Sequence record: NC_135728.1
From: a phage
Length of the DNA stretch: 64,000 nt
Direction: 5' to 3' (one strand)
A program made the position numbers and the translations under genes. Positions 2,487 to 34,194 of this stretch are shown in pieces (positions within the stretch are counted from its first letter, which is position 1; the number at the start of each line of letters is the position of its first letter). Below the pieces are notes generated by a model, which was not told the DNA's origin, searched no databases, and worked only from the letters and a program-made list of their open reading frames with translations.

Positions 2487-2517
2487 TCCAAATAGAAAAT
2501 CCCCGCCGAAGCGGGGG
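2487..2517 (-). terminator. intrinsic terminator, CCCCCGC-UUCG-GCGGGG hairpin plus U-run
   Basis: Minus-sense stem-loop with UUCG tetraloop followed by AUUUUCUAUUU, directly after the stop of the 2530-2910 gene. Confidence 0.6.
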
Positions 2518-2529
2518 AGGTCTTAGAAA

Positions 2530-2910
2530 TTAATCGTAGTGTGCCAAAATCTCTCCATCGTTGCAAGTTCCCTCTACAAAGTTATGAAGATTCATGCACT
2601 CATCTTGATAGAAGAATTTACCGCTTTTCAGCCGTAAGCCAAACAACTCCGCATCTCCACGATGGCAAGCCTCTACAAGTTCATAGATTTCATACGGCAA
2701 CTCTCCGTCGTCATGGAAGAACCCAGCCTTATCGTTGACATAGATGAAGAAATAATCACTGCTGTCGCAAGCGTCCAATATTTTAAACCAGATTTCATCT
2801 ACATCTTTTTCTCGGATATCGATCACGCAAGTGGAGCTGCATTCGTACTCCTTCTCCGGCTCCTCGGTCAATACCACCAGGTAGTTTCCCCGCTTACCTA
2901 CTTTAGCCAT
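2530..2910 (-). CDS. hypothetical protein (126 aa, acidic)
   Basis: ORF in a tightly packed same-strand array. Confidence 0.5.
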   Translation of the reverse strand: MAKVGKRGNYLVVLTEEPEKEYECSSTCVIDIREKDVDEIWFKILDACDSSDYFFIYVNDKAGFFHDDGELPYEIYELVEACHRGDAELFGLRLKSGKFFYQDECMNLHNFVEGTCNDGEILAHYD

Positions 2911-2919
2911 ACAACCCCC

Positions 2920-4104
2920 TTAAGCTTTAGCCAAAATGGCGCTAAACTCTTCACCAAACTCTTTTACAATCTTCATCAGGTTTGGGTATGCTTTGATCAG
3001 CTGAGCAACAATCTTGTCACGCCCTTTGCCGATAAGCAAGGCATTTCCTAAGGCATTAGGTTTCATCATCGCCATAAAGACTGAGAATACAAAATCTCGG
3101 TTCTCGTCCTTGAAGTTTTCCCAAAGGAAATCGAGGAAGTTTGCCACGCAGCTGACAAGATCTTCGTCTGAGATACTTGCATTTTCCATCATATTACGAA
3201 TAGCGATACAACCTTCAGATCCAAGAATCCACAAAATGTCTGGCTGCTTAGGACCTACGTATTCTTTGCAACCACCTGCCATAATCCGACCGATTTCAGG
3301 TAAATTGCGTTTCTTGGTGTGGTATGTCCAGATCTCTACCGCTGCAGTGTGACCAATAGCACCTTGCAGAAGAACACGGGCCATAGCGTCAGAAATAATA
3401 CCGCTGTCAAAATCGTGCAAGATGTCAGATGCAGCAACCCAAGATCGTGGTGTGGCAAAAGATGGACAATTAATCTCAGCCATAGCCTCATAATTATCAA
3501 TAGCTGATGGAACTCTTTTCAGATACCCAATTACAGAGGAGTGAACCCCGTTGAGGAATGCGTAGTCCTCAATAAACACCTCTGCATTGCTTGTAACCTC
3601 TACAATGATAAAACGGTTAGCCAGAGGGGCTTCGAGCGCCGAAAGAACCGCACCATCTGTAGAACGGTTACCCGCAGCCACAAAAACAGAACCCTTAGGG
3701 AATGCATAGGTGCCGCACTTGTGGTCAAGCATAATTTGCATTGCAACCTTTTGCAGGTAGTTATCTGCATGAGTGAGCTCATCCAGAAAGATAATTCCGC
3801 TCCAGTCAGGATCCGCAGGCCAAAATTCTGGAATTGCAAACACTGTACGTGTAGTTCCATCCGCTTCTACAGGGATAGGTAGCCCAGATAAGTCGGCAGG
3901 ATCTTTATCTGACAGTCGCACGTCAACAAGGTTGTCATCTCGCTCACCGAACATATTATCAGCGATCTGCTTCATCACCTGGCTTTTACCCACACCCATT
4001 GGTCCCAAAATTAGGACAGATCGGCTATGACGTTGGGCAAACTGAATAATAGCTGGCAACTCACGGACAGTGATTTGACCACTTTCGAATACGTTTCTTG
4101 ACAT
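2920..4104 (-). CDS. AAA+ ATPase, MoxR-like (394 aa)
   Basis: Walker A GPMGVGKS and Walker B IIFLDEL; length and layout typical of MoxR/AAA_5 ATPases. Confidence 0.7.
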   Translation of the reverse strand: MSRNVFESGQITVRELPAIIQFAQRHSRSVLILGPMGVGKSQVMKQIADNMFGERDDNLVDVRLSDKDPADLSGLPIPVEADGTTRTVFAIPEFWPADPDWSGIIFLDELTHADNYLQKVAMQIMLDHKCGTYAFPKGSVFVAAGNRSTDGAVLSALEAPLANRFIIVEVTSNAEVFIEDYAFLNGVHSSVIGYLKRVPSAIDNYEAMAEINCPSFATPRSWVAASDILHDFDSGIISDAMARVLLQGAIGHTAAVEIWTYHTKKRNLPEIGRIMAGGCKEYVGPKQPDILWILGSEGCIAIRNMMENASISDEDLVSCVANFLDFLWENFKDENRDFVFSVFMAMMKPNALGNALLIGKGRDKIVAQLIKAYPNLMKIVKEFGEEFSAILAKA

Positions 4105-4373
4105 TAGTAAAAGTCCTCTACTTGTGTGTAAGTGTTTTCAAAGTTTTCCAAAACAGATATCACATCGAATCTGTCAATATCATACGTGACTCTCCAGTTG
4201 TACGCAACCCTTTCTGCTGTTGCCTCTTCTGGCGCTAGTCGTCTGCTGGCATAAAAGAGTGTTGGAGTACACTTTCTTGCTTGCCCTCTAACTTTCCCAT
4301 AATAATATCTGTGAATATCTTTGTCAAAATTTAACTCTTTTTCTGCACGAAGTTCATATTGCTGGTATAACAT
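4104..4373 (-). CDS. hypothetical protein (89 aa)
   Basis: ORF whose stop overlaps the start of the downstream gene. Confidence 0.45.
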   Translation of the reverse strand: MLYQQYELRAEKELNFDKDIHRYYYGKVRGQARKCTPTLFYASRRLAPEEATAERVAYNWRVTYDIDRFDVISVLENFENTYTQVEDFY

Positions 4374-4417
4374 CTCTACTACTCCTTAAGCGGCATCCTT
4401 GCCGCCATTCCTGCCCA

Positions 4418-4798
4418 CTAAAATGCAGTCCGAATCCAGACAAGGTTCTTATCTGCCCAATCATAGAGGCAAGTCATTGCACTATTGAATTGCTCACACG
4501 GAGGATAATCTTCTTCCATCTGGCGCATAGCAGAGCCTTGTGGGTAAAGCTCCCGTGCTGCAAACCACGCATCGTAGTCATCCACGGTATCGAAGTAGTA
4601 TACAACATCCTCCAACTCAGGATCGAACTTTGAACTATCAGGATCCAGTTGTTCAGGGAACTTGGAGCGTAACTTGCCAGCCACAATACTTGCCAACTCG
4701 CTAACATGCTTATTGTCCCACTCCACTAGCTTCCCGTCTTCAGTGATGCGTCCTAACCACTGATCATGAAGGTCAACTGTTGTCTTCCACTGAGCCAT
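4418..4798 (-). CDS. hypothetical protein (126 aa)
   Basis: ORF in same-strand array. Confidence 0.5.
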   Translation of the reverse strand: MAQWKTTVDLHDQWLGRITEDGKLVEWDNKHVSELASIVAGKLRSKFPEQLDPDSSKFDPELEDVVYYFDTVDDYDAWFAARELYPQGSAMRQMEEDYPPCEQFNSAMTCLYDWADKNLVWIRTAF

Positions 4799-4800
4799 TA

Positions 4801-5058
4801 TCAGTCCACCTCTTCTTCTCGTTGTAGTTCAAGATACCCGTAGGTCTGGACATCTTGAAGGGTGTGGAACTCCCCCTCTGCCGCTAAGGCACGAACAACT
4901 TGGCACAAAACCTTATGAGGAACTTCATCCAAACCTAGATTCAGTGCAGGAAACACCTTATCTAAGTCAACAAAATAAACGAACTGTAGCTCACCAGCTT
5001 CAAAAGGTGTATCTTCAATAAACATCTTCTCGGCATTAGTCAAGATCTGCACTTTCAT
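4801..5058 (-). CDS. hypothetical protein (85 aa)
   Basis: ORF in same-strand array. Confidence 0.45.
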   Translation of the reverse strand: MKVQILTNAEKMFIEDTPFEAGELQFVYFVDLDKVFPALNLGLDEVPHKVLCQVVRALAAEGEFHTLQDVQTYGYLELQREEEVD

Positions 5059-5414
5059 TATTCTACCTCCTCTTCTTTTTCTTCGGCATTAGTTTCATGG
5101 CTACTCCACTCGGGAGTTTCCACCTCGATAGTAAACTCACGCACTACACGGTAATTGCCCATGAAGCGCTCTACTTCGTCAAGGCTTATGGAGAGGCCAT
5201 TGGCAACCAGGTCTGCAGCACCCTCTTCTACCAGGTAGTCCAGATTGGCTTCCAGAGCCTCAGGTTCAAACCCTGTCAATGCAATCAGATAACCTTCCCC
5301 TTCATCAGGGAGGACAATACAGCCCAATTGATTTTCTTTAAAAAGGCAGTGACCATCATTATTGATTGGGTGTTCATTGCAGTACATAGCTGCACGATAA
5401 GTAACTTTAGACAT
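5058..5414 (-). CDS. hypothetical protein; start moved to the internal ATG (MSKVTYRA...)
   Basis: Track ORF begins at a TTG (5435); the ATG at 5414 is preceded by AAGGAGA at good spacing. The start lies inside the 29-bp inverted repeat. Confidence 0.5.
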   Translation of the reverse strand: MSKVTYRAAMYCNEHPINNDGHCLFKENQLGCIVLPDEGEGYLIALTGFEPEALEANLDYLVEEGAADLVANGLSISLDEVERFMGNYRVVREFTIEVETPEWSSHETNAEEKEEEVE

Positions 5415-5419
5415 CGGTA
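5391..5419 (-). repeat. 29-bp perfect inverted repeat, copy A (TACCGATGTCTAAAGTTACTTATCGTGCA in minus sense)
   Basis: Exact reverse-complement match to 7253-7281; spans the start codon and first 8 codons of the 5058-5414 gene. Confidence 0.85.
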
Positions 5420-5427
5420 AGGTCTCC

Positions 5428-5706
5428 TTAGGCAATTGTCATTTTACATTCTTGAAATTTTAACACAAGACGGTGATTGTGTCTAGTGTCTAAAAAGATT
5501 TTTTCAACCATCAGGCACACGGTATAACCGTCCATCTTGTTGACAACAAAATCTCCAGGATGAGGGAGGATGTCTCCCGGATTGGGGAAACATAGTCCAC
5601 TCAGAAAGGCATCGTCAGTGGTGGACTTAATAGATTTCCACACACTGTCTGCCTGAACATGTTCACCGACGTAATATACATTACCACACGCCTTCATCAT
5701 AGTCAA
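5428..5706 (-). CDS. hypothetical protein (92 aa)
   Basis: ORF with ATGA stop/start overlap to the upstream gene. Confidence 0.45.
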   Translation of the reverse strand: MTMMKACGNVYYVGEHVQADSVWKSIKSTTDDAFLSGLCFPNPGDILPHPGDFVVNKMDGYTVCLMVEKIFLDTRHNHRLVLKFQECKMTIA

Positions 5707-6602
5707 ACCCTCGCATAAATTAAACTTGTATCAGTATACTTCTTTAATGGGTAAATATCCTGTCCATAGATGCAATCATTAAACACCTCATCTACCCAAA
5801 GGCTACACTTATATCCCATCATTTCTAAAACACCCATCTCTTCTTCGGTAAACTTATCACCGCTCTTGCAAGATGTCAATACCTCATTCTGAACTCTTGC
5901 TACCTCGAAGCGGTTATTGGCAATATCGCTATTGGCGATCAAATACTCACCTAGAGGGTGTGCGGCATTAAAGATGCACAGTGGACGGCTGACGTAATAG
6001 TCTCCGGGTGTATAAAAATTGTTGAGGTCTTTCACTAGAACATTCTTATCAGTCACTTCATTTATAACATCATGCATATCGCACATCTTTATATGTTTGA
6101 GGATTCCATCCCCCATCACAAAATAAAAACTTGCTGAGACACTTTCGGCATAGATCTTACTAGATCCGTTGTAGTTGTATTTTACTCGGATGCTAACGGG
6201 GGTTTTTCCTGTCGCGTTAGCCATCATCCAAAGAAATGGCAGCTCATACTTCTCCTCTGAGGAAACAAAAGGTGAGGTAGCCAGAGATCGAAAACCTCCA
6301 GAGAAGTTGAAAGTTACAGAACCGCTCCGGCGGTATGATACCGCGTATTCTACTTTTATATCGACGTACCCATTGGAATAGGTGTGTCCTTCATTATCTA
6401 AATATGTCCACTTATCAGACCCAGATACCAATCTACGCTCAATAACCTTCATCACTACAGGAATTAGTGGGTTGGTACAAACCGCTTTTGAAGTAGCTTT
6501 ATCATCTAAAGCCTCGTAAATTGCAGAAAGGATGTCCCCAGCTGAAAGATTGGTTGTTATGTCCTGTTTCCACCGCGTACTAAAACTGTTAAGATTTGCC
6601 AT
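5703..6602 (-). CDS. hypothetical protein (299 aa)
   Basis: ORF with AGGAG RBS about 9 nt upstream of the ATG; first gene of the leftward early block. Confidence 0.55.
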   Translation of the reverse strand: MANLNSFSTRWKQDITTNLSAGDILSAIYEALDDKATSKAVCTNPLIPVVMKVIERRLVSGSDKWTYLDNEGHTYSNGYVDIKVEYAVSYRRSGSVTFNFSGGFRSLATSPFVSSEEKYELPFLWMMANATGKTPVSIRVKYNYNGSSKIYAESVSASFYFVMGDGILKHIKMCDMHDVINEVTDKNVLVKDLNNFYTPGDYYVSRPLCIFNAAHPLGEYLIANSDIANNRFEVARVQNEVLTSCKSGDKFTEEEMGVLEMMGYKCSLWVDEVFNDCIYGQDIYPLKKYTDTSLIYARV

Positions 6603-6642
6603 AAGTAAGTGCTCCTATGTTAGTTTTCTTTCGAATGGGTGC

Positions 6643-6671
6643 ACTATATTGTGGAGTTAGAGTAAAGTCAA
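6643..6671 (-). promoter_or_regulatory. sigma70-like promoter (TTGACT-17-TATAGT) for the leftward early block
   Basis: Minus-sense -35/-10 hexamers with 17-bp spacer in the divergent intergenic region. Confidence 0.45.
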
Positions 6672-6684
6672 CACGTTTTTGATG

Positions 6685-6713
6685 TTGACATCTGTTGAGA
6701 CAATTGATACGAT
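6685..6713 (+). promoter_or_regulatory. sigma70-like promoter (TTGACA-17-TACGAT) for the rightward block
   Basis: Plus-strand consensus -35 with 17-bp spacer and partial -10, back to back with the minus promoter. Confidence 0.4.
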
Positions 6714-6744
6714 TTCTTCACTTACAGAGCACGAGAGACGACTC

Positions 6745-7722
6745 ATGAATCTTGAAAAATATTATACACCAGAAGAGTTAGAGCGCTTGCTCAAAAAATA
6801 TAGACGCAAACAGAATAACGCACGGAAACGAGATATAGAGTTCGACCTGTCATGGGAAGAATACCTCCTATTTGGTAAAAAACTTTTAGGAGATGGAGTA
6901 TGCGACTATACCCTTATACCTTTTGACATGCACACAGATGAAAACGGGCTGGGAAATCCTTTCTACCCATCTCTGGAGCGGATAGATGATGAAGGTCCTT
7001 ATGCGGTTGATAACTGTTGTGTGGTGGGATTGAGATGCAACTCTCTAAAGGACTGTCTGGTAGATAAAAAGACTGCAGTCTTGATTAAAGACGAAACTGA
7101 TCGAAAAATTGTCCAGCAGATGATGCTCCACCTGAGCGAAGAGCGTATGGAGAAATTGAAAGGTGATTATACTTTTGAAGATTTCATCTTGCAATATGGA
7201 ACGGAAGAGGATAAACTAGCACTCTTTGACGAAGAAGAGGAGGAAGATATGCTACCGATGTCTAAAGTTACTTATCGTGCACCCAAGAAGCACATTTCCG
7301 ACATTGTAAACGAGCCTATCACAGAAGAGATTGAAGAAATGACGCAACAGGTGCATGAAGAGGAAAAAGAGACTCAGGAGGTCGAAGAGGAGCTTACAGA
7401 AGAGGTTCCTGCACTACCTGATGATGTTGAGATTGCCAAAGCTTACACTTTCTATTGTCAAACGTTCTACGATGTAGGTATGAAAGTTGATCTGTCGTTC
7501 AGCCAATTTAAGAGTTCGTATATTCGCAAATGCTGTGCTTTAACTGGTGAACGTCTTGGAGCTGGACTTAAACCTCTGTTGGTGACCGACTGGAATAAAG
7601 GTTTCACTAAAGGAAACTTTATGGTAGTATCTCCAATTATGGAGAAAGCTATGACAGATCTTATGAAGACCACCCGCATGACAATGACCGAGTTGGCAGG
7701 TATTTTCAAACACGTTAAATAA
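6745..7722 (+). CDS. hypothetical protein with HNH (His-Me finger)-like motifs
   Basis: Track ORF starts at TTG 6679, upstream of the predicted promoter; first ATG after it is 6745 (MNLEKYY). Motif SLERIDDEGPYAVDNCCVVGLRCNSLK plus an acidic linker; a second in-frame start (MSKVTYRA, 7258) sits in repeat copy B, so this may be two genes. Confidence 0.45.
   Translation: MNLEKYYTPEELERLLKKYRRKQNNARKRDIEFDLSWEEYLLFGKKLLGDGVCDYTLIPFDMHTDENGLGNPFYPSLERIDDEGPYAVDNCCVVGLRCNSLKDCLVDKKTAVLIKDETDRKIVQQMMLHLSEERMEKLKGDYTFEDFILQYGTEEDKLALFDEEEEEDMLPMSKVTYRAPKKHISDIVNEPITEEIEEMTQQVHEEEKETQEVEEELTEEVPALPDDVEIAKAYTFYCQTFYDVGMKVDLSFSQFKSSYIRKCCALTGERLGAGLKPLLVTDWNKGFTKGNFMVVSPIMEKAMTDLMKTTRMTMTELAGIFKHVK
7253..7281 (+). 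repeat. 29-bp perfect inverted repeat, copy B
   Basis: TACCGATGTCTAAAGTTACTTATCGTGCA on the plus strand; identical to the reverse complement of 5391-5419. Confidence 0.85.
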
Positions 7723-7734
7723 TAACAGGGGCCA

Positions 7735-9216
7735 ATGGCCCCTTCTGGAGTTTTAATGGATAGCAGAAGTTCAGAAATCATTGCCTCGCAGAAAGATGAT
7801 GCCCTGAGAATGTTGCAGGCTGCACGTATGTATCTCCTTGAAAAGCTGCCGTTCTATGGCACACTACTGTCAGGGTTGCAGTTCGTAGAAAACCACACAT
7901 GGTGCTCCACCATGGCAACCGACCATAAACGCATCTATTACAGTCCTGAGTTCATTATGGGATTGGCTGATGAACGCAAGGCTATTCTTAAGGCTTCTCT
8001 AACTGACGAGCAGTTTGAGATGGCTGAAGTTTTCTATTCCCCAAAATCTGTGAAAGAGGTGGCCTTCCTTCTGTCACATGAGGTGGGGCATATTATCTGT
8101 GATCACCTAGTCCGTGGTAAAAGCTTTGAGCCGGAACTGTTCAATATTGCTTGTGATCACGTTATCAACACAGGCCTTGTGGTTGACTTTAGCAAACCTC
8201 CTTGTGTTTTCTTCCCGAAGGGGAAAAGCACTACGTTCGTGAAAGGTAAGCCTTTTGGCTTCTTAGCCAGCTGCTACTGCGACATGAAGTTTCATGGATG
8301 GATTGCTGAGAACGTTTATGCAGTTCTTGATAAGCAAAGAGATCAGAATAACGGTAAAAGTAAGAACGGTAAAGGTGAGAACTCTCAAAGTGATAAGCGA
8401 CAAACCGATGATCACATGAGTGGGAACGGTGGCACCAGTGATAATCTTGGAAAGGCTATGGGGTATGATCAGCCACAACCTGTAATCAGCCAATCTGATA
8501 AAGATCAGGCCATGCAGGACTCTGGTGATATGCTGGAGGCAGCAATGCAAGCGTCCGGAGGCCGTTGCCCTGAGGCGGTGCGTGAGTTTGTCAAGAACAG
8601 AGGTAAACCTGTAATCAACTATATAGACATCATTAAGCAACGCATGTTGTCTAAAAGAAAGGCCGAACTGACCTACAGAAAACCTGGTCGCCGATCTGGG
8701 TCTTTGACCAGCACAATGCGAAAAGTTGGGGCTATAAACAAGAACCAGCACGTTATTGTTCCTGGTCGTAATCCGGAAAACACTATAGATATTGTGGTGG
8801 CTTTAGACGTTTCTGGCTCGATCTCTCAAAGAACTTTAAAGAAAATGTTCAATGAAATCACCGGATTGTGCAATCTGTATAAAGAGTTTAAGGTTACAAT
8901 GTTCTGTTGGTCAACTGAGGTTGGAGAGGTTAAAGTATACACTCGCGGCAACATAGACGAGATGATCAACTATGAGGTCCACTCAACATGGGGCACAACA
9001 GCTGCTTGCGTGTTCGAGTATCTGGATGCCAACATACCTAATGCAAAAGATGTCATCGTCCTGACCGACCTATACTTTGAGCATAACTTTGAACAAAAGG
9101 TTGTTGACAACAAGTGGAAAAAGTACGATACTCTATGGGTCCTCACTGAGGGGTATAATAAAAATTATATCCCGAGCTTTGGGAAAACTGTGGAATTAAT
9201 CGAGTACGCTAAGTAA
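7735..9216 (+). CDS. vWA-domain protein with N-terminal HExxH metallopeptidase-like motif (493 aa)
   Basis: HEVGHIICDH zinc-binding motif; C-terminal MIDAS-like VVALDVSGSIS; true start may be the ATG at 7756, since a hairpin overlaps 7726-7744. Confidence 0.65.
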   Translation: MAPSGVLMDSRSSEIIASQKDDALRMLQAARMYLLEKLPFYGTLLSGLQFVENHTWCSTMATDHKRIYYSPEFIMGLADERKAILKASLTDEQFEMAEVFYSPKSVKEVAFLLSHEVGHIICDHLVRGKSFEPELFNIACDHVINTGLVVDFSKPPCVFFPKGKSTTFVKGKPFGFLASCYCDMKFHGWIAENVYAVLDKQRDQNNGKSKNGKGENSQSDKRQTDDHMSGNGGTSDNLGKAMGYDQPQPVISQSDKDQAMQDSGDMLEAAMQASGGRCPEAVREFVKNRGKPVINYIDIIKQRMLSKRKAELTYRKPGRRSGSLTSTMRKVGAINKNQHVIVPGRNPENTIDIVVALDVSGSISQRTLKKMFNEITGLCNLYKEFKVTMFCWSTEVGEVKVYTRGNIDEMINYEVHSTWGTTAACVFEYLDANIPNAKDVIVLTDLYFEHNFEQKVVDNKWKKYDTLWVLTEGYNKNYIPSFGKTVELIEYAK

Positions 9217-9231
9217 GAGAGGAGGTTATTT

Positions 9232-9495
9232 ATGGCAACAGAGTTAAAATTTGCATCAAACCGTAAAACTAAGAAGTATCTGTCCTCAGTAGCTCCAGGC
9301 ACTGTGGTGATGTTTGTTGATGAACTTGGGGATGTGAATACAGCACTTGTTGTAAAATCACATCCTGCAAACATATATGTTGGGGTATTTGACCTGTTCA
9401 GAAAGGTGTTTGTAGAACTACCTCACAGTTTGGTTGTTACAGAAATGGATGCCTGCATAGAAATTCTTGGCGAAGTTATGGTGGAGGAACAATAA
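9232..9495 (+). CDS. small paralogous protein 1 of 4 (87 aa)
   Basis: Strong RBS GAGAGGAGG; shares G-T-V-V and V-x-E-x-D-x-x-I-x-I-L-G-E pattern with the next ORFs. Confidence 0.55.
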   Translation: MATELKFASNRKTKKYLSSVAPGTVVMFVDELGDVNTALVVKSHPANIYVGVFDLFRKVFVELPHSLVVTEMDACIEILGEVMVEEQ

Positions 9496-9758
9496 TGGCT
9501 ACCAGCATTGTATTCAATTCTAAGGTGAAGAACAAAAAGCGTGCAGACAGCTTTCCGTGTGGGACCGTGGTAAGTTGCGACGGAGACGGCATTCAAAACA
9601 TAGTTATGATTGTCAAAACAGGAGAACATTGTGTGTGGGGGTTCGATTTAGAAAATAATGAGTTGTACGATCTGCCACCAAACATGAAAGTTACAGAGCT
9701 TGACACCAAAATTACCATCCTTGGAGAGACAAGCTATTCAAAAGAAGGAGGAGAATAA
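9495..9758 (+). CDS. small paralogous protein 2 of 4 (87 aa)
   Basis: Same length and motif pattern as 9232-9495; ATGA-type coupling. Confidence 0.55.
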   Translation: MATSIVFNSKVKNKKRADSFPCGTVVSCDGDGIQNIVMIVKTGEHCVWGFDLENNELYDLPPNMKVTELDTKITILGETSYSKEGGE

Positions 9759-10021
9759 TGACCACAAAAATCACTATCGCAGAACCGAAAGCTAACACTC
9801 AACCTATCGAAAAGTTTAAGTGCGGTGAGGTGGTAACATTCACACCAGATAATGAAGATGCTAAGATTTTCGCAATGGTCACAGCTGAGTGGATGTGTGA
9901 CAACACCACACAGGTTCTGCGTTTTGACACCTATCTTACCGATGAAATCAGGAACGACAAGATTGTGACTGGTGTGGATACTGAGATTGTTTTCTACAAG
10001 AGCTTTTTAGAGGGTTTCTGA
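9758..10021 (+). CDS. small paralogous protein 3 of 4 (87 aa)
   Basis: Same length and related pattern (CGEVVTF...). Confidence 0.5.
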   Translation: MTTKITIAEPKANTQPIEKFKCGEVVTFTPDNEDAKIFAMVTAEWMCDNTTQVLRFDTYLTDEIRNDKIVTGVDTEIVFYKSFLEGF

Positions 10022-13021: not shown

Positions 13022-13050
13022 TTGACATCAACACCAGATTTATATATGAT
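13022..13050 (+). promoter_or_regulatory. sigma70-like promoter (TTGACA-17-TATGAT)
   Basis: Consensus -35, 17-bp spacer and near-consensus -10, 30 nt upstream of the ATG at 13081. Confidence 0.5.
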
Positions 13051-13080
13051 TATCTCATCAACCAAGCAGAGGAGATTGTC

Positions 13081-13488
13081 ATGGATAATCTTGCAAGTGT
13101 GAACGTCGAAATTGTTAAACTAAAGTTCTTGGGCTTTCGAGACCCGAATTCTTTAACAGCTATACTGATGGATACCCACTTCACACCTGGGAAAGAGTAC
13201 ACCGCCTTCCGTTATATTTGTGGAGACCACGAATCAGCCTATAGTGTGAATACAAATCTTGGCGAGGGATATTTCATCAAAGATATTACAGACCACCTGT
13301 GGGGTATATGGGAGCTGGTGGAAGAAGAGAATAAATCCCTTCCTAAAGAGATTTGGGTGCACACCTTCCACACAGGCAAGTTTGGAGGTACGGAACATAA
13401 GTCTATCCACTATGATGAAGAGAGTGCCATCAAGCAACAAGCTGTGCTTGGTGGATCTGTAGAAAAATTTGTTAAATGCGAGGACTGA
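13081..13488 (+). CDS. hypothetical protein (135 aa)
   Basis: First ATG (MDNLASVN) after the promoter, with GAGGAG RBS; the track start at 13006 lies upstream of the promoter. Confidence 0.5.
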   Translation: MDNLASVNVEIVKLKFLGFRDPNSLTAILMDTHFTPGKEYTAFRYICGDHESAYSVNTNLGEGYFIKDITDHLWGIWELVEEENKSLPKEIWVHTFHTGKFGGTEHKSIHYDEESAIKQQAVLGGSVEKFVKCED

Positions 13489-13692: not shown

Positions 13693-13704
13693 TTATAAAA
13701 AGAA

Positions 13705-13730
13705 AGGGGCCGTTTGGCCCCTTTTTATTT
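13705..13730. terminator. bidirectional intrinsic terminator between convergent blocks
   Basis: AGGGGCC-GTTT-GGCCCCT hairpin flanked by T-runs on both strands. Confidence 0.65.
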
Positions 13731-27327: not shown

Positions 27328-27338
27328 ATCTCGCCGCC

Positions 27339-28829
27339 TTAAATAGTTTGTTGGAAAGTTATATTACTTTCGTCGAGGTCAAACACCTCGGTCATGTTCG
27401 CAACAATATCGTTTGTAGTGTAAGCTTCATCAGAAGCTCCTACGGATTTAACTTGAATTACCAGTCTATTAAATCTGCCTATTGACACAGCAGCAGATGC
27501 AGCACCTACCAATTGGATATTATACAACGTATCTGCAACATCCAGTCCGTTAACAACCTGCAAAAGAGCCTCTATAATGGCATCTTTTTCGGTTGTAGAA
27601 AGCGCAGCACCGGAGTAGGTAATTCTCATATCCAGGCGGTAGGTGTTTGCCTTGGAGTAATAAATTCTTTCAGTTTGACCGTCAGATGTAGTGACATCGT
27701 AGAAAATATTACCATAAGTCCTGTTCGTACAGGCTATAGTTTGGTAAAGTGCTTGGCAAATGTCTTCCGTTGCACCACCAAACACAACCACTTGGAACTT
27801 GTAAGGAGGTATACCTTTAGCATCAGTTTTATCGGTGTTGTTGGAGAACACTCTCACTTTCTCAACACCTTTCACCTCGCTTACAGCGCTAAGGATTGCA
27901 GGACGGGTAGCCTTAGATGTTAACTGTTTTGTGCTGGAAGCTCTTAAGCGATACTCTGAGTCTTTCTCAACATCCCTGCCCTCATTGAATCTTTCTCGGT
28001 TGGTAAGCTTGATAAATCCACTAGGAGTAGGTGACATTGTTGTCACGGTTTCTGCTTCTCTTGACAGCTCACCAGCCTCGTTAGCGATAACATCCAGTGT
28101 GATAGTTCTTTCCCCTACAATCGGGGATACTCTGAAATCTACCCTACTATTAAGTCCAACTTGATCAAGATTCGAATTGTACCCTATCCACAACGTTCCT
28201 GTCAACATATCGATCTGAATCAAATCGTCGTTCAACAGGGTTGTATTATCGACAATGAATTGCTTAATCTCTCCGTAAAAGCTTGGCAGATCAGAAGAGT
28301 CCAGAGCCTTATCTGTTAAAACCAAACTTTTTGTTTTGATACTTCCATCTGTCTGGTTGGTAATTTGAAAGTTGTATTTACCAATCCTCAGGTCTGGAGC
28401 ATTTATTCTGTGGGCAATAAGATTCCCTGCCACTTGCACATCATTGCTAAGAACAAAGTTGCCACTATCCAGCGTATAAGTTTTGGAATCATAAATCATA
28501 TTGTACGGCACAGTTGTGTTGATCGTCAACTGGCAGGTACCTGATGATTTAGAACGGCCTCTTCGGTAAATACCCCGTCTTCCAAGAAGCTCATCCAGGT
28601 AAATACCTTCTGCCCCATACAGCGTCTGTGATGCGTATACAGATGCTGCCATAAGAATAAGTTGATACTCTCGCTCGTTGAAGATAGTGGTCAACTTATC
28701 TGCAACGGAGTTACTCTGTACGTTGAAGTTTTCGCCAAAAGCACGGATCAGGCTTTGCTTAGTTTCAACGATTAGGTCATTTAGGGTTGGTATAACGAAA
28801 CCAGCCTCTGTCAATCCATACTTAGCCAC
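27339..28829 (-). CDS. baseplate protein, possibly J-like (496 aa)
   Basis: GTG start with GGAGGA RBS; call by position and size, homology not verified. Confidence 0.45.
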   Translation of the reverse strand: MAKYGLTEAGFVIPTLNDLIVETKQSLIRAFGENFNVQSNSVADKLTTIFNEREYQLILMAASVYASQTLYGAEGIYLDELLGRRGIYRRGRSKSSGTCQLTINTTVPYNMIYDSKTYTLDSGNFVLSNDVQVAGNLIAHRINAPDLRIGKYNFQITNQTDGSIKTKSLVLTDKALDSSDLPSFYGEIKQFIVDNTTLLNDDLIQIDMLTGTLWIGYNSNLDQVGLNSRVDFRVSPIVGERTITLDVIANEAGELSREAETVTTMSPTPSGFIKLTNRERFNEGRDVEKDSEYRLRASSTKQLTSKATRPAILSAVSEVKGVEKVRVFSNNTDKTDAKGIPPYKFQVVVFGGATEDICQALYQTIACTNRTYGNIFYDVTTSDGQTERIYYSKANTYRLDMRITYSGAALSTTEKDAIIEALLQVVNGLDVADTLYNIQLVGAASAAVSIGRFNRLVIQVKSVGASDEAYTTNDIVANMTEVFDLDESNITFQQTI

Positions 28830-28862
28830 GTCACTCCTCCGGTATGAAAATCTCTACAAGGT

Positions 28863-28891
28863 ATTTTACCAAATTTTGTAACAATAGTCAA
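28863..28891 (-). promoter_or_regulatory. sigma70-like promoter with extended -10 (TTGACT-N14-TGGTAAAATA)
   Basis: Hexamers with 17-bp spacer between the upstream terminator and the GTG start at 28829. Confidence 0.5.
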
Positions 28892-28898
28892 TCTGAGC

Positions 28899-28926
28899 AT
28901 AAAAATAAACCCCGCCGAAGCGGGGC
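28899..28926 (-). terminator. intrinsic terminator, CCCCGC-UUCG-GCGGGG hairpin plus UUUAUUUUU
   Basis: Same hairpin core as the 2487-2517 terminator; follows the J-like gene. Confidence 0.65.
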
Positions 28927-28934
28927 TTTAAAGG

Positions 28935-31900
28935 TTAGTCGTGAGACTCGTTCCAAGGTCCTTGGAAACTAGAGTTAGAACGGCTTACCACAACAGTAGG
29001 ACAGGATATTGCGACCCCTGTTACAGAAGACGTTGACCATGGTGTGTAGATTTCAACAACAATATCTATGGTTTGTTCACCAAGACCTGTTATCCCTACC
29101 GCACACATGCCGTTGTTGTCGTTTCCGTACTTCTTACCTGCAAGGATTTGATGTCCGGCTATCCAAACGTTGAGCTGGGAGCTGGCAAGAGTACCATTCA
29201 GTTTAAAGAAGAATGTTACGTTCTTACCCTGACCTGAAACGTTATCTACATATCTCCACCTCCAACGGCAAACCCTTTGCTGGGAGTTATATACTGGAGC
29301 ACAATCCCCGTAAGTCCTGTGTGCAACTATTGCACCTTCGAACTGGTTAGCACGGATAACAGAAGCTTCTACACGACCACGGAATGTACCTCCGGTTGCA
29401 TCTATGGTGCCTCTAAAGCTACCATTATTGGCATAAACATCCCCACGGAAGGTACCACTAGTGGCGTTAACTGCCCCTGTGAAGTTACCAGAACTGGCGT
29501 TGATGTTGCCTTTCACCCACACATCCATAAATTGGGCGTGCCCGTTCTTGTTAATATACCAACCGTATTGATGGTACCCGTTACCATCGTAGTTGTTTGA
29601 CGAAATTTCTTGTGCGATCTTGGCAGAGGAGATCGTGCCATTCTCTATAAAAGCGTCTTTCAAGAACGCTTGGTTGTTCTTGATTGCGAAAGCAAGGGTT
29701 GCTGTTCCATTTCCAGGGTTGTATACCGCAAAATTGTTTGCACTAACCATGAAGTAGGATTGAACTTGTCCTCCAGACCCCTCCATGCCCAGCTGGATAC
29801 CTGCAACATATTTATTACCATGGCTGTCAACCTGAATCTTAGCTCCCCACTGAGCATCTATTTTACCCTCAAGTGTTGTTACAGCTTTAGAGGTATTAGA
29901 TACTGTAGCCCTGAGCTCATCAATATTACCCATTTCGTCAACAATTTCTTGTTTTGCAGAGGTAAGTTCTTGACGGATCGCTGTGGCTGTATTATTAACA
30001 AGATCAACTGTTGTACTATTAGTTTCTTGAATAGATGCTTGCAGATTGGCAACCTCTTTCTGCACATCATCTTCCAGCTTGGTGATCTTCCCTGTAGCTG
30101 CCACCAGATCCTGCTTAATAGCTTCCGTTGTCTTATTTAGCAGATCGGTTGTTGCCTTGTTGGTTTCTTGAATAGAGGAGTTAAGTTTGCTCTCAGTGTT
30201 CTTCAACTCTTCCCGCAGAGTACCTTGAGTTGCAGTTATTTGCTCACTCAATGCTTGAGTTTTACGATTAACAAGATCAACGGTTGATCTATTTGTTGTC
30301 TCGATTAGTGACCCAAGCCTACCAGACTCTGCTGCAAGTTTATCGTCAAAGGATTGCTGAGCTGCTACCAGCTTACTGTTAAGGGCAGAAATTTCTCCAT
30401 TAACCCCTGTAAATTTTTCTGTCGTCTCTCTGACAACACCCTCTATTGTATCCCCAAGCTCTTCAAAAATGCTAGTAACACGGTCATTGACTGCACCAAC
30501 ATTTTTATCCATTTCCTTGACTGCATTATCAAGATTGGCGGTAAGCTCTTTATAAGTCTCTGTCTTTTTGAACTCAGCATCAATCTGTGGCATAAGATCT
30601 TCTATGGATGTGTAACAGTGGGCTGCACACTCCATAAAAGCAGATGAACCAAAAGCATTTGTTGTCCTGATATACCAGTAATAAATCTTATCGTTCTGCA
30701 GACCTTCAGATGTCCAAGTTGAACCAACACCCATACGAGTGGCTTTTGAAGTAACTGTTACATCACTGGTATCTGGCAATCTTGTCATCCCAGATGTCCA
30801 AAAGTCGTACTGGGTGCTTACACTAGCCAAGTCTCTGCTGTGCGGGATCAGGGTAATAGCAAAGTATCCCTGCTTAACCTCTACAGAAACAGGAGCTTCA
30901 GGTGCCTGAATGTTGAACTCGCAGTACGCTTCTGGAGATACACCACCTTTATAAGATGTTGCAACCACGGTTGCTGTGTATGATCCTTTGGTCAAGCCTT
31001 CTACTCGGACAAACTGCTCAACTGTCTGTGCTGTCCAAACAATCTCTCCGTTCTTTCTTACCTGCACAATATTTTGAGCGTAAGTTCCAACGTTGTCCCA
31101 AGCCAAAACACCGTGAGTTACTTCCCCGGCTTGGAGAACGGAATATCTGAAGTTTTGCGGTTGAGCTACACCAGATGGAGATATCGGAATATCTACATCA
31201 CCAGAATCCGGAAGTTGCCCTGTGGCATCATTCCACTCTTTAGCATCTTGACGAAGTTTTACCTTGACACCGCCCTTTTTGGTGAACTCCCATTCAAGAA
31301 CCCTCATTTCTTGGCCTACTATACCAATACTTGGAAGGTCCATTGTAACGTAACGGCCAGGTTTAAATTTAAAACCTCGCATATTGCAGGTGACTTCAAT
31401 AATCCTGCCAGCTCTAGCACGTCTTAAGAAGATTGCAGAAACACGCTGAGCTTGATAAGGACTGGTAACAAAGCGATAGTCTATATCAATTATCTTTCTT
31501 TCTCCATCCTTCTCTATCCACTCTGGGACAAACACTGATGGAAAATCTGTTTCAGAATACCCTTTGGTCGGACTAGTGAATCTGCCAGTTATTGTGTTGG
31601 ATCTCTTGTCAAAGGAGGCTTCCGGATAGATCTTGACCTCACCACAGACACAATCCTCACTCAGTGTCATTGTTGCTGGGCCATAGTATGCACCAACCAG
31701 CAAACCATACTTACCAGCAACATAACTAAGGTCTGCACCGCAAGCTTTCAGCATTTCTGCCATAATACTTGCTGGGGCCTCATCCATGTCAAACTCACCG
31801 TTAATGGTGTAACGTCGCTCACTGGTTCCGTCAGCGTTTTTTACCGCCTCGTCGCATATATTGGCAGCCTCCCTAAAGGACTCCCAGTTGATGGTTTCGT

Positions 31901-32534
31901 CAGGACATTTAAGGTACGTTCTTAAATAGTCCAGGATCACCAAGGCTGCGTTATTGGTGTACACCTCTTTACTGATGCGAGGATCATAGCATTTTTTACC
32001 AACCTTGACGAGTGTAACGTTTGGCAACCCAAAAGGAAACTTGTTAGGGTCAAACTTGAAACTGGCACGTAGCCAACTGATCCCTCTACCTATCATGTCG
32101 GGTGACCATGATGGGCAGTGTGTACCCATGAAAGGATCAGATGTTTTTCTGTCGTTATGTAGCTCCCACGATACCAGATCTCCATACGAGGAAATAGGAT
32201 TACCGTCGATGAGTATGTCTTCTATACCTTCCAGAGGATGATTAGCAAGAACAATGGCACAATGGAGGGTTCTGTCTCTGTCCTGCTCCAAAAACGCAAG
32301 CAGCCCAGACGTGCGTGTCTTCCCATACACTACAGAGCAGGGTGCAGCAGAAGATCTGAGAAGCTTTTGTCTATCTTGCTGACTTCTGTAAGATTTGTTG
32401 CCCTCAAAAATCTTATCCAGAGTTCTGGTGGTAACAGTGTTCAGGCTGTCAGCCAGAGCTGCCTTGGATGCGTTCCAGTCATAACTTGAAGATCTTGCAG
32501 AAGCAACGATGTTATCAATCATTGCAATTGGCAT
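28935..32534 (-). CDS. central tail fibre/host-specificity protein, lambda J-like (1199 aa)
   Basis: Architecture and local sequence reminiscent of lambda gpJ (e.g. KIYYWYIRTTNAFGSSAFME versus lambda DYYFYIRSVNTVGKSAFVE, recalled from memory); coiled-coil repeats; C-terminal receptor region. Confidence 0.65.
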   Translation of the reverse strand: MPIAMIDNIVASARSSSYDWNASKAALADSLNTVTTRTLDKIFEGNKSYRSQQDRQKLLRSSAAPCSVVYGKTRTSGLLAFLEQDRDRTLHCAIVLANHPLEGIEDILIDGNPISSYGDLVSWELHNDRKTSDPFMGTHCPSWSPDMIGRGISWLRASFKFDPNKFPFGLPNVTLVKVGKKCYDPRISKEVYTNNAALVILDYLRTYLKCPDETINWESFREAANICDEAVKNADGTSERRYTINGEFDMDEAPASIMAEMLKACGADLSYVAGKYGLLVGAYYGPATMTLSEDCVCGEVKIYPEASFDKRSNTITGRFTSPTKGYSETDFPSVFVPEWIEKDGERKIIDIDYRFVTSPYQAQRVSAIFLRRARAGRIIEVTCNMRGFKFKPGRYVTMDLPSIGIVGQEMRVLEWEFTKKGGVKVKLRQDAKEWNDATGQLPDSGDVDIPISPSGVAQPQNFRYSVLQAGEVTHGVLAWDNVGTYAQNIVQVRKNGEIVWTAQTVEQFVRVEGLTKGSYTATVVATSYKGGVSPEAYCEFNIQAPEAPVSVEVKQGYFAITLIPHSRDLASVSTQYDFWTSGMTRLPDTSDVTVTSKATRMGVGSTWTSEGLQNDKIYYWYIRTTNAFGSSAFMECAAHCYTSIEDLMPQIDAEFKKTETYKELTANLDNAVKEMDKNVGAVNDRVTSIFEELGDTIEGVVRETTEKFTGVNGEISALNSKLVAAQQSFDDKLAAESGRLGSLIETTNRSTVDLVNRKTQALSEQITATQGTLREELKNTESKLNSSIQETNKATTDLLNKTTEAIKQDLVAATGKITKLEDDVQKEVANLQASIQETNSTTVDLVNNTATAIRQELTSAKQEIVDEMGNIDELRATVSNTSKAVTTLEGKIDAQWGAKIQVDSHGNKYVAGIQLGMEGSGGQVQSYFMVSANNFAVYNPGNGTATLAFAIKNNQAFLKDAFIENGTISSAKIAQEISSNNYDGNGYHQYGWYINKNGHAQFMDVWVKGNINASSGNFTGAVNATSGTFRGDVYANNGSFRGTIDATGGTFRGRVEASVIRANQFEGAIVAHRTYGDCAPVYNSQQRVCRWRWRYVDNVSGQGKNVTFFFKLNGTLASSQLNVWIAGHQILAGKKYGNDNNGMCAVGITGLGEQTIDIVVEIYTPWSTSSVTGVAISCPTVVVSRSNSSFQGPWNESHD

Positions 32535-32971
32535 TAATACCTCCAGACATCAACAACGATAGAATCTTTCATGTCGAACATAAAGACCCCTTTATCACCT
32601 TTCGCCCAAATCTGGTTGTTCCAGAACACACCAGCGGTGAGCCCGTTCAGACCTTCGAAAATGACAATATCTCCACGCTGAACCTGTTTAGGAGTATCCA
32701 GCCGAGTCATAAAGAGATCAAAAATAGTAGGCAGGTGTGTGGTTTTGAAACGGAGCATGCACCATCTTTTGCTTTCCAACTCTGTTTTATACGTTCCTTC
32801 GAAGTTAGAAAGAAAATCTGTTCCGTACTGGGCATCAACACACTTAGCTGCAAAGGTGCAACAATCGTGGAATCCCCATTCAAAAGGTATGGTGGCCTCT
32901 TCGTCAAACACTTTCCACAATCTTTCTTGCCAATCCACTAAACGAGGGTGTGTGCTCATTAAACCTCCCAA
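32534..32971 (-). CDS. tail-associated protein, possible NlpC/P60-like peptidase (145 aa)
   Basis: HDCCTF Cys-containing motif; position immediately upstream of the J-like gene as for lambda gpK. Confidence 0.4.
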   Translation of the reverse strand: MGGLMSTHPRLVDWQERLWKVFDEEATIPFEWGFHDCCTFAAKCVDAQYGTDFLSNFEGTYKTELESKRWCMLRFKTTHLPTIFDLFMTRLDTPKQVQRGDIVIFEGLNGLTAGVFWNNQIWAKGDKGVFMFDMKDSIVVDVWRY

Positions 32972-33525
32972 ATGATCGGGCGGCTCGCCACCTGATCCAC
33001 ATATTTAAAAAATCTGTCATTATCGTTTCTTGAGCTGTGGCTTTCCTCCGTGTACCTATAAGGAAAACCTCTTAACCAACTGTTGAAGATGGAAGAGATG
33101 GATATGGACAAAGCACTATTCTCACCTGTCTGAATAGCCATATCTGTTATAAGGCCGTCAAACAAGCCATTAGTTGTAACAGGCAGACCATTCTCCATAG
33201 CGGTAATGTACAACGTGGCACGACAACCAGAATACTCCGTCTTCAGCAGATCACCAACATACTTAGGATCAAACCCGTTCAATGTTGCTACCACAGATCC
33301 GAAGTTGGTGGCATCTTTCTCAGACACAGCAGTTAATGTTGCTGATCCACCTATCCCTATAAAATGTTGCCCCTCAATTACTACAACACCAGTGCCTGAG
33401 CACACCCTGACAGTTCCTGTCGGTAGCTCCAGCTTTGCAGCAATTAAGATCTCAACACCATCAAGCTCCAGCTTTTCAAGAAATAAATTATCTAATGGCG
33501 CTCTGATCATCTTAGAAATCCTCAA
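32959..33525 (-). CDS. minor tail protein (188 aa)
   Basis: Overlapping start/stop with neighbours; positional call. Confidence 0.4.
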   Translation of the reverse strand: MRISKMIRAPLDNLFLEKLELDGVEILIAAKLELPTGTVRVCSGTGVVVIEGQHFIGIGGSATLTAVSEKDATNFGSVVATLNGFDPKYVGDLLKTEYSGCRATLYITAMENGLPVTTNGLFDGLITDMAIQTGENSALSISISSIFNSWLRGFPYRYTEESHSSRNDNDRFFKYVDQVASRPIIWEV

Positions 33526-34102
33526 AGAAGTTGATAACTATATTATCACCTTTTTGCATAGCATCGACTTTTTGCTTAATTTTATAAATATCTCTGATAT
33601 GAAACCTACCCTTTGGGGATTGAGTTATTATCTTCATAGTATCCCCTGCGGCAATAGGTTTCCTAAGTCTTGGAGATATGCTTATAACAGCAGCCCCAAC
33701 ACCATCGCTGCGTACTGGAGCTGTTACTACTTTCAACTCATCGTTCACAGATATTTTATCACCAGCTCTGGCTATGTCTCTGTTTGGCTCCCACCCGACC
33801 GTCTTCAAAAAATCGTCGTTACCAGTAGGCCCAAGAGCGATTGGCTCATTAGCTGTTACCGAGTGACCGTAAGTTTTAATGAGAAATATGTTCCCATCTT
33901 TATATACCTGATCAACAAAGCTCTTAAGCTCTAACAACTGTGACTCGCTGATATTGGAAACCGTCAAAGTGCCTTTCCAGTTAGGTGTGGCATAGGTTAC
34001 TTTTTGCGTTTTACCTGTAAACGGACTTTTAAACGTAACAATATCTGCTAGCAGCTCCAATCTAATATCTGGAAGGTATCTAGGCCTTTCCCATAAAAAC
34101 AT
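33512..34102 (-). CDS. minor tail protein (196 aa)
   Basis: Positional call. Confidence 0.4.
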   Translation of the reverse strand: MFLWERPRYLPDIRLELLADIVTFKSPFTGKTQKVTYATPNWKGTLTVSNISESQLLELKSFVDQVYKDGNIFLIKTYGHSVTANEPIALGPTGNDDFLKTVGWEPNRDIARAGDKISVNDELKVVTAPVRSDGVGAAVISISPRLRKPIAAGDTMKIITQSPKGRFHIRDIYKIKQKVDAMQKGDNIVINFFEDF

Positions 34103-34133
34103 TGTGCCTCCAGGTTAAACAATCATGATAGTT

Positions 34134-34162
34134 ATTTTACCAGATTTTAAGTTAATACGCAA
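34134..34162 (-). promoter_or_regulatory. sigma70-like promoter with extended -10 (TTGCGT-N14-TGGTAAAATA)
   Basis: Shares the TGGTAAAATA motif; sits between a terminator and the gene start at 34102. Confidence 0.45.
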
Positions 34163-34165
34163 TAT

Positions 34166-34194
34166 AAACAAAAAGCCCCCGCCGAAGCGAGGGC
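34166..34194 (-). terminator. intrinsic terminator, GCCCUCGC-UUCG-GCGGGGGC hairpin plus U-run
   Basis: Third copy of the UUCG-tetraloop terminator motif. Confidence 0.55.

Follow-up and report, generated by a model that had tools for sequence, protein, structure and literature searches.

The minus strand of the window (the stretch of DNA analysed here, comprising the first 64 kb of a Vequintavirus, an rV5-like E. coli phage) carries the sequence CCC(C/T)CGC-TTCG-GCGGGG followed by a T-run at three positions: 2487-2516 (site 1), 28897-28928 (site 2), and 34164-34194 (site 3). The initial annotation had read these as one terminator hairpin reused after three unrelated genes and spread as a cassette by recombination. 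Are these sequences terminators, and does their likeness reflect copying or convergence?

Anatomy of the three hairpins

All three hairpins were found on the minus strand where the initial annotation had placed them. They are nearly identical, except that the stem of site 3 reads CCCTCGC rather than CCCC(C)GC. The core 14-mer, CCCGCTTCGGCGGG, occurs three times in the window when up to two mismatches are allowed (in each case on the minus strand), against an expectation of 0.04 from dinucleotide shuffles; a count of three was reached in 0 of 100 shuffles.

At site 1 (2487..2516, minus strand), a 6-pair predicted stem, CCCCGC-UUCG-GCGGGG (2516-2501; CCCCGC-TTCG-GCGGGG and then ATTTTCTATTT in the DNA), is followed by an interrupted U-tract, AUUUUCUAUUU. 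Site 2 (28897..28928, minus strand) has a stem of 7-9 pairs, AAGCCCCGC-UUCG-GCGGGGUUU (core 28926-28909), with the U-tract UUUAUUUUU; the corresponding DNA is (AAG)CCCCGC-TTCG-GCGGGG(TTT) at 28928-28907, then ATTTTTAT. Site 3 (34164..34194, minus strand) has 8 pairs including one U.G, GCCCUCGC-UUCG-GCGGGGGC, with the U-tract (C)UUUUUGUUU; in the DNA this is GCCCTCGC-TTCG-GCGGGGGC (34194-34175, one T.G wobble), then TTTTTGTTT. The loop is 4 nt throughout and is closed by C-G at all three sites (...GC-UUCG-GC...), giving a C(UUCG)G tetraloop, and a U-rich tract begins within 2 nt of each stem, that of site 1 being weaker. Predicted RNA stabilities are -15.3, -16.5, and -16.9 kcal/mol for sites 1, 2, and 3, respectively.

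The hairpins are non-coding and start 13, 6, and 5 nt past the TAA stops of minus-strand genes: a 126-aa hypothetical protein ORF at site 1 (2530-2910; phrog_12370), a 1199-aa J-like central tail fibre gene at site 2 (28935-32534), and a 110-aa ORF at site 3 (34200-34532; phrog_1361). These genes belong to three different PHROG families and a direct comparison of ORF3 with ORF40 found them unrelated, bearing out the description of the upstream genes as unrelated. The three sites are among approximately 13 strong terminator-like minus-strand hairpins in the window, the remaining ten of which have different stems and loops.

It is scarcely tenable that the recurrence is pure coincidence, or that the hairpins are recognition sites (for packaging, replication, or a regulator) that have nothing to do with transcription. 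We found no specific support for this, although with three copies only, chance among selected G/C hairpins is conceivable. Against it stand the excess of copies over the shuffled expectation and their placement, strand-matched to the genes, just past stops, and with U-tracts. An Rfam search found no matching family at sites 1-3, and stem sequence varies at the orthologous positions in other genera (discussed below), which argues against sequence-specific recognition.

The anatomy is that of C(UUCG)G-capped intrinsic terminators: a 6-9 pair G/C stem under a C-G-closed UUCG loop, with a U-tract immediately after. Like rV5 t003 and t041 and the CUUCGG hairpins of T4, the sites are intergenic, on the coding strand, and just past stop codons. 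By what is established for such elements, the short G/C stem would fold in the nascent RNA, capped by the unusually stable tetraloop, and the U-tract would then release the transcript. The hairpin remaining at the 3' end probably also shields the upstream mRNA.

Sites 1 and 3 are direct orthologues, identical in sequence, of the predicted rV5 terminators t003 and t041 (Table S4 of Kropinski et al. 2013, PMC3606486). Site 2 is absent from that 2013 table and present in later GenBank records, being Terminator_10 in OV101294 (where site 3 is Terminator_09) and an ARNold terminator in MT682716; terminator features are also present in the Alma and Gotham records. Apart from this omission there is no difference of substance from the predicted rV5 terminators, and site 2 can be added to the published list. 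A literature search found no transcript 3'-end mapping for any Vequintavirus. The canonical anatomy, the location just past stop codons, the position kept in other genera, and the earlier predictions all uphold the initial reading of these hairpins as terminators, and the view that all three are ordinary Rho-independent terminators of a known type, two of them already published, is well supported at the level of sequence.

Transcriptional setting of the three sites

At site 1 the T-run directly abuts the endolysin gene's GGAG ribosome-binding site, with its GTG start at 2480, leaving no space for a promoter. Given the broken U-tract and the absence of a promoter before the endolysin start, site 1 is most likely a partial terminator (attenuator) within the gene 10-to-1 transcription unit; that is, it is probably a leaky attenuator inside an operon.

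Sites 2 and 3 each appear to be a composite junction, in which a hairpin and U-run are followed by a predicted sigma-70-type promoter with an extended -10 element (TGGTAAAATA); a stem-loop and such a promoter share one intergenic unit at sites 2 and 3 and not at site 1. Just 3' of site 2 is TTGACT-17-TGgTAAAAT (28863..28891, minus strand; P036 in rV5 Table S4), predicted to serve the baseplate wedge gene (27339-28829). Just 3' of site 3 is TTGCGT-17-TGgTAAAAT (34134..34162, minus strand; P040 in the same table), predicted to serve the gene for a Dit-like distal tail protein (33512-34102). Between them the two sites bracket a four-gene tail-tip module (28935..34102, minus strand) consisting of the Dit-like gene, two small ORFs, and the J-like fibre gene, and they would insulate and then re-start transcription on either side of it. 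Within its subfamily, this module is confined to Vequintavirus; outside Vequintavirus, the relatives of its Dit gene are in siphoviruses only, at no more than 37% identity.

The hairpins might instead act mainly in RNA stability or processing, as 3' protectors or 5' stabilisers with little termination, in the manner of the intercistronic CUUCGG hairpins of T4; we judge this to be very unlikely. CUUCGG hairpins abound in T4 intergenic regions (Tuerk et al. 1988) and between phage genes generally, with roles beyond termination that include mRNA stabilisation (Tuerk et al. 1988 and Gorski et al. 1985, both through the summary in PMC8948821). Endolysin and rIIA would also need read-through of site 1, since no promoter is predicted in between. 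However, every stem has right behind it a U-tract that a pure stability element would not need and that is kept at orthologous sites. A promoter also lies behind site 2 and another behind site 3, the arrangement one would look for where transcription from upstream comes to an end. Stability and termination roles are not mutually exclusive.

The initial annotation had also linked the hairpin to module boundaries, a remark that holds for sites 2 and 3, where tail-fibre genes end in sharp divergence boundaries. In comparisons with FFH2, Alma, and Gotham, divergence falls there from 30-37 to 1-7 mismatches per 250 nt. This drop lies at about the 96th-97th percentile of random positions, the boundary is one-sided, and it amounts to essentially one event per site because the three phages share nearly one pattern. 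It is equally expected where variable tail-fibre C-termini lie beside conserved backbone genes. No indel or replacement bounded by both units was seen relative to these three phages.

The hairpin beyond the window

At orthologous positions in other genera, what is conserved is structure and not sequence, as is characteristic of Rho-independent terminators. The wedge and endolysin junctions of Seunavirus and Mydovirus have fully paired stems of other sequence, followed by T-runs. Upstream of the wedge gene, 4MG has GGGGC-TTCG-GCCCC and VIK251 has CCACCC-TCCG-GGGTGG; upstream of the endolysin gene, GAP31 has AGCCCC-TGCCCT-GGGGCT and KpS8 has AGCCCC-GCAAT-GGGGCT. As at site 1, TTTTTAATTTGGAG and then the start codon come next in both endolysin cases. 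Further Vequintavirus diversity was sought in IMG/VR, which yielded only 3 loci, and no lineages at 80-95% wedge-protein identity were found.

The same hairpin recurs in phages and bacteria that are unrelated to this one. Queried by blastn, the site 2 intergenic region matched 561 phage records, approximately 446 of them non-Vequintavirus; those sampled from the latter (Salmonella, Klebsiella, Pseudomonas, and Rhodobacter phages and a microvirus) align over the hairpin and T-run only. In IMG/VR, a T-run follows the 14-mer in 108 of 123 copies among the matches listed, on at least 120 unrelated contigs (GC 33-67%). Among the matches listed from bacterial genomes, which include Escherichia albertii, Serratia, and Pseudomonas, a T-tail is present at 57 of 122 copies (22 of 31 below 58% GC). 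Stem usage was gauged from the T-tail fractions of three exact 14-mers of the same composition, in place of the degenerate SSSSCTTCGGSSSS: among the matches listed, these were 66/125 for GGGGC, 93/124 for CCGCC, and 108/123 for CCCGC, making CCCGC/GCGGG the most terminator-associated of the three stems tested. Across 2.1 Mb of unrelated viral contigs, none of the 221 non-seed terminators has the exact 14-mer, a result that speaks against a simple appeal to a "universal base rate"; approximately 6% of these 221 have UUCG loops.

Within rV5, UUCG loops cap 6 of 21 terminators, on 4 different stems (Table S4 plus site 2). Two further terminators in the window serve as comparators. The first, AAGCCUCACC-UUAG-GGUGGGGCUU (49326..49349, minus strand; t052 in Table S4), has a UUCG loop in FFH2 and rV5, suggesting that such a loop can be gained or lost by a single point change on an unrelated stem. 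The second, GGGGGGGC-UCCG-GCCCCC (46047..46066, minus strand; t049 in Table S4), has a UNCG-class loop on a different stem. The window terminators at 7743 and 13724 share the stem GGGGCC/GGCCCC and differ in their loops. In the whole genome of the relative FFH2, only the three sites and one CCCTC/GAGGG variant are found.

Origin of the likeness

We favour the view that these are three independent canonical intrinsic terminators of the host RNA polymerase whose likeness is probably best explained by convergence: the lineage has a strong bias towards C(UUCG)G loops, and 5-7 pair G/C-only stems leave few alternatives. Against this view, three copies among the approximately 21 terminators of one genome exceed what a universal base rate would give, with a probability of roughly 1e-3 at a 1% rate; by a crude estimate, it is only when the UUCG preference of the lineage and the uneven usage of stems are taken into account that this rises to an unremarkable 0.1-0.25 or so.

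Transfer of a cassette is less likely, and the initial proposal of spread by recombination fares poorly. The shared sequence is a stem-loop of 16-17 nt only, many phages and bacteria with no relation to this one use the 14-mer as a terminator hairpin, and other stems occupy the orthologous positions in Seunavirus and Mydovirus. Flanks were compared by local alignment for every pairing of the 13 terminators (78 pairs), taking 40 nt on the upstream side and 45-60 nt on the downstream side. Site 1 gave background scores only against sites 2 and 3, whereas sites 2 and 3 formed the top-scoring of the 78 pairs. Their intergenic regions reach a z of 5.2 against a plain shuffle, and 1.4 (p 0.10) beyond the functional blocks, with the T-run, TTG, TGGTAAAATA, and GGAGG held fixed. 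As the block-fixed shuffle removed the signal, flank homology was rejected as a sign of common descent for sites 2 and 3.

It is nonetheless conceivable, if doubtful, that at least two of the three hairpins were copied from one sequence by recombination, through junction duplication or short-patch gene conversion. The most plausible case would be sites 2 and 3, with the duplication accompanying insertion of the Dit-to-J module on the upstream side of the baseplate wedge gene. These sites bracket an acquired module unique to Vequintavirus in the subfamily, next to a wedge-gene junction that is ancestral, and their whole intergenic regions, the best-scoring pair in the window, are approximately 58% identical with their elements in one order. 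Terminators at large seldom have the exact core (none of the 221 above), and rV5 has two identical 22-nt hairpins at other places in its genome, t213 and t232 (PMC3606486), so copying of terminators may occur in rV5. However, outside the functional blocks the likeness of sites 2 and 3 falls short of significance, and they differ in stem length, wobble position, U-tract, -35 hexamer, and hairpin-to-promoter spacing (33 versus 38 nt). Site 1 lacks a promoter, its flanks are unrelated, and its position already has a terminator with outer CCCC/GGGG arms in other genera. Hundreds of unrelated phages have evolved the same hairpin.

A more elaborate form of this idea, which we consider quite unlikely, is that sites 2 and 3 are paralogous homology anchors for host-range module swaps, one of them duplicated when a siphovirus-type Dit-to-J module was captured and both now marking the 3' breakpoints of tail-fibre exchanges. 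The model would be the PeSL (promoter-early stem-loop) cassettes of T4-type phages, which number approximately 50 per genome, are concentrated in hyperplastic regions, often have a stem-loop overlapping the promoter, and bound indels and mini-circles (Arbiol et al. 2010, PMC2839356; Comeau et al. 2014, PMC4122927). Like PeSLs, sites 2 and 3 combine a stop codon, a stem-loop terminator, a sigma-70-like promoter, and a Shine-Dalgarno sequence, and lie at edges of exchangeable genes where divergence falls sharply. Unlike PeSLs, there are two units here, with an identity accounted for by functional elements; their hairpin is upstream of the promoter, and site 1 has no promoter. Many copies sharing sequence beyond function were not found: there are three sites and one variant, with the p of 0.10 given above.

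The sites also recall the REP/BIME-type palindromes of enterobacterial genomes in being short palindromic hairpins, rich in G/C and found repeatedly in intergenic DNA. REP/BIME elements are approximately 35-40 nt long and imperfect, have no obligatory U-tract, and are present in hundreds of copies that are often clustered, whereas the three hairpins described here are perfect, 16-20 nt long, and each followed by a U-tract.

On the reading preferred here, convergence, the finding matters little for new biology, and identical UUCG-capped hairpins within one genome need not imply common ancestry. It nevertheless describes rV5-like phages whose structural-gene region would be partitioned by terminators, both strong and compact, and by terminator-promoter pairs. 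Site 1 predicts that endolysin is expressed by attenuated read-through, and sites 2 and 3 may provide clean borders at which the tail-fibre modules of therapeutic Vequintaviruses could be engineered or exchanged.

An rV5-like genome with three predicted UUCG-capped terminators

A 10-kb piece of the window is matched at 90-97% identity by 122 phage records, nearly all from the genus Vequintavirus (rV5-like E. coli myoviruses). Coordinates run parallel to those of Escherichia phage FFH2 from the first base of FFH2, indicating that the window is the first 64 kb of a Vequintavirus genome. The genes, mostly on the minus strand, begin with rIIA and the endolysin gene, continue with those for tail, head and terminase, and end with a tRNA cluster. 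Approximately 18 records named "Campylobacter phage" (MG0656xx; C15, A12a, A116 and others) are among the best matches to this E. coli-type phage (96% identity); such names are probably mislabels or contaminants. Two stretches of the plus-strand early-gene block (approximately 9247-9655 and 13036-13466) have no counterpart in FFH2 and are small-gene indels among short ORFs. Between ORFs 58981-60069 and 60419-60847 there is a match to the Rfam group I intron RF00028 at 60153-60457 (minus strand; 79 bits, E 1.6e-18), where FFH2 has one uninterrupted terminase large-subunit gene. The full intron region is found in 52 of the 120 matching Vequintavirus records, including rV5, and the intron is therefore polymorphic in the genus.

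Three hairpins with C(UUCG)G caps are present on the minus strand where the initial annotation placed them, and are predicted intrinsic terminators. Site 1 (2487-2516) is CCCCGC-TTCG-GCGGGG at 2516-2501, followed by ATTTTCTATTT. Site 2 (28897-28928) is AAGCCCCGC-TTCG-GCGGGGTTT at 28928-28907, followed by ATTTTTAT, and site 3 (34164-34194) is GCCCTCGC-TTCG-GCGGGGGC at 34194-34175, its stem including a single T.G wobble, followed by TTTTTGTTT. Predicted RNA hairpin energies range from -15.3 to -16.9 kcal/mol, and each hairpin starts 5-13 nt after a TAA stop codon. The upstream genes are unrelated to one another, as had also been claimed: they encode a hypothetical protein of 126 aa (site 1), a J-like central tail fibre of 1199 aa (site 2) and a protein of 110 aa (site 3). 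The core CCCGCTTCGGCGGG (up to two mismatches) has three copies in the window, all on the minus strand, compared with 0.04 expected. That strand carries approximately 13 strong terminator-like hairpins, the other ten of which differ in stem and loop.

These elements are ordinary and largely already published. Kropinski et al. (2013) predicted 20 rho-independent terminators in rV5 (Table S4, PMC3606486), including t003 and t041, which are sites 1 and 3 and are identical in sequence between the table and the window. Site 2, not in that table, has a terminator annotation in phages Alma (OV101294, Terminator_10) and Gotham (MT682716, ARNold). UUCG loops occur in 6 of the 21 terminators of the rV5 lineage (Table S4 plus site 2), the others in the table having different stems: t052 (GCCTCACC), t109 (GGGGC) and t122 (GCCCTC) (PMC3606486). 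The t052 orthologue in the window (49326-49349, minus strand) has the loop TTAG (UUAG) instead of the TTCG of FFH2 and rV5, a single base change by which this phage loses a UUCG tetraloop. From Tuerk et al. 1988 onwards (summarised in PMC8948821), C(UUCG)G hairpins have been known to abound in phage intergenic regions; their stability is reviewed in PMC4371310. A stem shared by two other terminators, GGGGCC/GGCCCC, is found at 7727-7743 (loop ATT) and 13703-13724 (loop AAAC); the latter is bidirectional and sits where the gene 26 and gene 27 blocks converge, as already noted for rV5 (PMC3606486).

Copy number, flanks and orthologous junctions

The initial annotation attributed the shared hairpin to a terminator cassette spread by recombination. 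This reading is not supported; four tests argue against it: whole-genome count, flanks, generic occurrence of the hairpin and orthologous positions. The whole FFH2 genome contains the same three copies and a CCCTC/GAGGG variant only, and a search of it found no repeat family of the hairpin. At FFH2 92080-92125 (plus strand), between protease and methyltransferase genes, GCCCTC-TTCG-GAGGGC and TTTTAT are followed directly by GGAG and ATG; this hairpin is rV5 t122 and abuts the ribosome binding site as at site 1.

When all 78 terminator pairs were compared, similarity of site 1 to sites 2 and 3 was at background in both the upstream and downstream flanks, and sites 2 and 3 were the best downstream-flank pair. 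Their whole intergenic regions are approximately 58% identical when aligned. In plain shuffles this pair scored z 5.2, above the z 2.1-2.5 of true wedge-junction orthologues across genera, which allows that the two junctions may share an origin, possibly by local duplication. Under a constrained shuffle, in which the T-run, TTG, TGGTAAAATA and GGAGG were kept in place and the remainder randomised, the excess fell to z 1.4 (p 0.10). The nearest precedent for spread by recombination is the PeSL (promoter-early stem-loop) cassette of T4-type phages (PMC2839356, PMC4122927); sites 2 and 3 are like it in composition and placement, but differ from it in copy number and sequence identity.

The hairpin is also widespread elsewhere. 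Its 14-mer occurs in at least 120 IMG/VR contigs; among the matches listed, these have 33-67% GC and unrelated flanks, and a T-run follows 108 of 123 copies, compared with 66 of 125 and 93 of 124 for two less terminator-associated control stems of identical base composition. The 14-mer is common in bacterial genomes too, among them Escherichia albertii, Serratia and Pseudomonas. When the site 2 intergenic region served as a blastn query, 561 phage records matched, approximately 446 of them non-Vequintavirus; in the sampled rows only the hairpin and T-run matched, mostly in unannotated sequence.

Other genera carry terminators at the equivalent junctions. At the baseplate wedge gene (27339-28829, downstream of site 2), 4MG (Seunavirus) has GGGGC-TTCG-GCCCC, a T-run and TGATAAAATA, and VIK251 (Mydovirus) has CCACCC-TCCG-GGGTGG, a T-run and TGGTAAAATA. 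The endolysin junction has AGCCCC-TGCCCT-GGGGCT in GAP31 and AGCCCC-GCAAT-GGGGCT in KpS8; in both, TTTTTAATTTGGAG and then the start codon come next. The site 1 and site 2 terminators thus predate the genus; their stems have turned over in place with the structure kept.

Junction types and the tail-tip module

The three sites represent different types of junction. The T-run of site 1 leads straight into GGAG and the GTG start codon of the endolysin gene, without room for a promoter. Because Kropinski et al. predicted no rV5 promoter between P010 and gene 1 and treated genes 10 to 1 as part of one transcription unit (PMC3606486), endolysin and rIIA would have to be made by read-through; the interrupted U-tract of site 1 is consistent with a leaky terminator. 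At sites 2 and 3 the terminator is paired with a minus-strand promoter, TTGACT-17-TGgTAAAAT (28891-28863) and TTGCGT-17-TGgTAAAAT (34162-34134), respectively; comparison with PMC3606486 identifies these as rV5 P036 and P040. The motif TGGTAAAATA, found by MEME upstream of rV5 genes 27-66 and called "late" (PMC3606486), reads as an extended -10 element of sigma-70 type. Exact copies lie at 28862-28871, 34133-34142, 49245-49254 and 52767-52776 (minus strand), and allowing one mismatch gives 22 matches in the window versus 6 expected.

Sites 3 and 2 bracket four genes (Dit-like, two small ORFs and a J-like fibre). Matches to the Dit gene at 90% identity or more come from Vequintavirus only; outside the genus it occurs in siphoviruses, at 37% or less. 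Seunavirus and Mydovirus do not have the module at this position. This distribution suggests that the bracketed module was acquired: 28935-34102 (minus strand) has the appearance of a siphovirus tail-tip module captured within a myovirus baseplate region.

The remark on module boundaries is supported at sites 2 and 3, where mismatches to FFH2, Alma and Gotham fall from 30-37 per 250 nt to 1-7, a drop that ranks at about the 96th-97th percentile among random positions; site 1 has no such divergence boundary. The sharp changes, at 34165-34207 and 28926-28962, coincide exactly with the ends of ORF40/ORF41 and ORF36; for site 3 the transition lies between 34202 and 34165, an interval containing the hairpin. 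All three comparators have essentially the same pattern, suggesting one event per site. Variable tail-fibre C-termini adjoining a conserved backbone would be expected to give such a drop just as well. Further mosaic blocks, at approximately 13.6-18.8 kb and 45.0-47.0 kb, correspond to an Ig-like giant protein and to the tape-measure C-terminus with the gene that follows it, respectively.

Convergence and copying of terminators

Convergence is, on balance, the probable explanation for the likeness of the three hairpins; that at least one pair arose by copying seems rather unlikely. UUCG loops capped 13 (6%) of the 221 non-seed terminators located in unrelated viral contigs totalling 2.1 Mb, and this core was present in none of them, so a universal base rate does not account for three copies in one genome, a point on the side of copying. 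Under convergence, the three-copy coincidence is unremarkable only given the UUCG preference of the lineage and its uneven stem usage (bracketed estimate about 0.1-0.25). Copying gains further plausibility from rV5 t213 and t232, outside the window, which share one 22-nt hairpin sequence (GCCCTGCCCGAAAGGGTGGGGC, mismatch included) at 121343-121370 and 132395-132422 of the rV5 genome (PMC3606486 Table S4). This pair is a better candidate for true terminator copying than the three hairpins studied here, and suggests that local copying of terminators may happen in these genomes.
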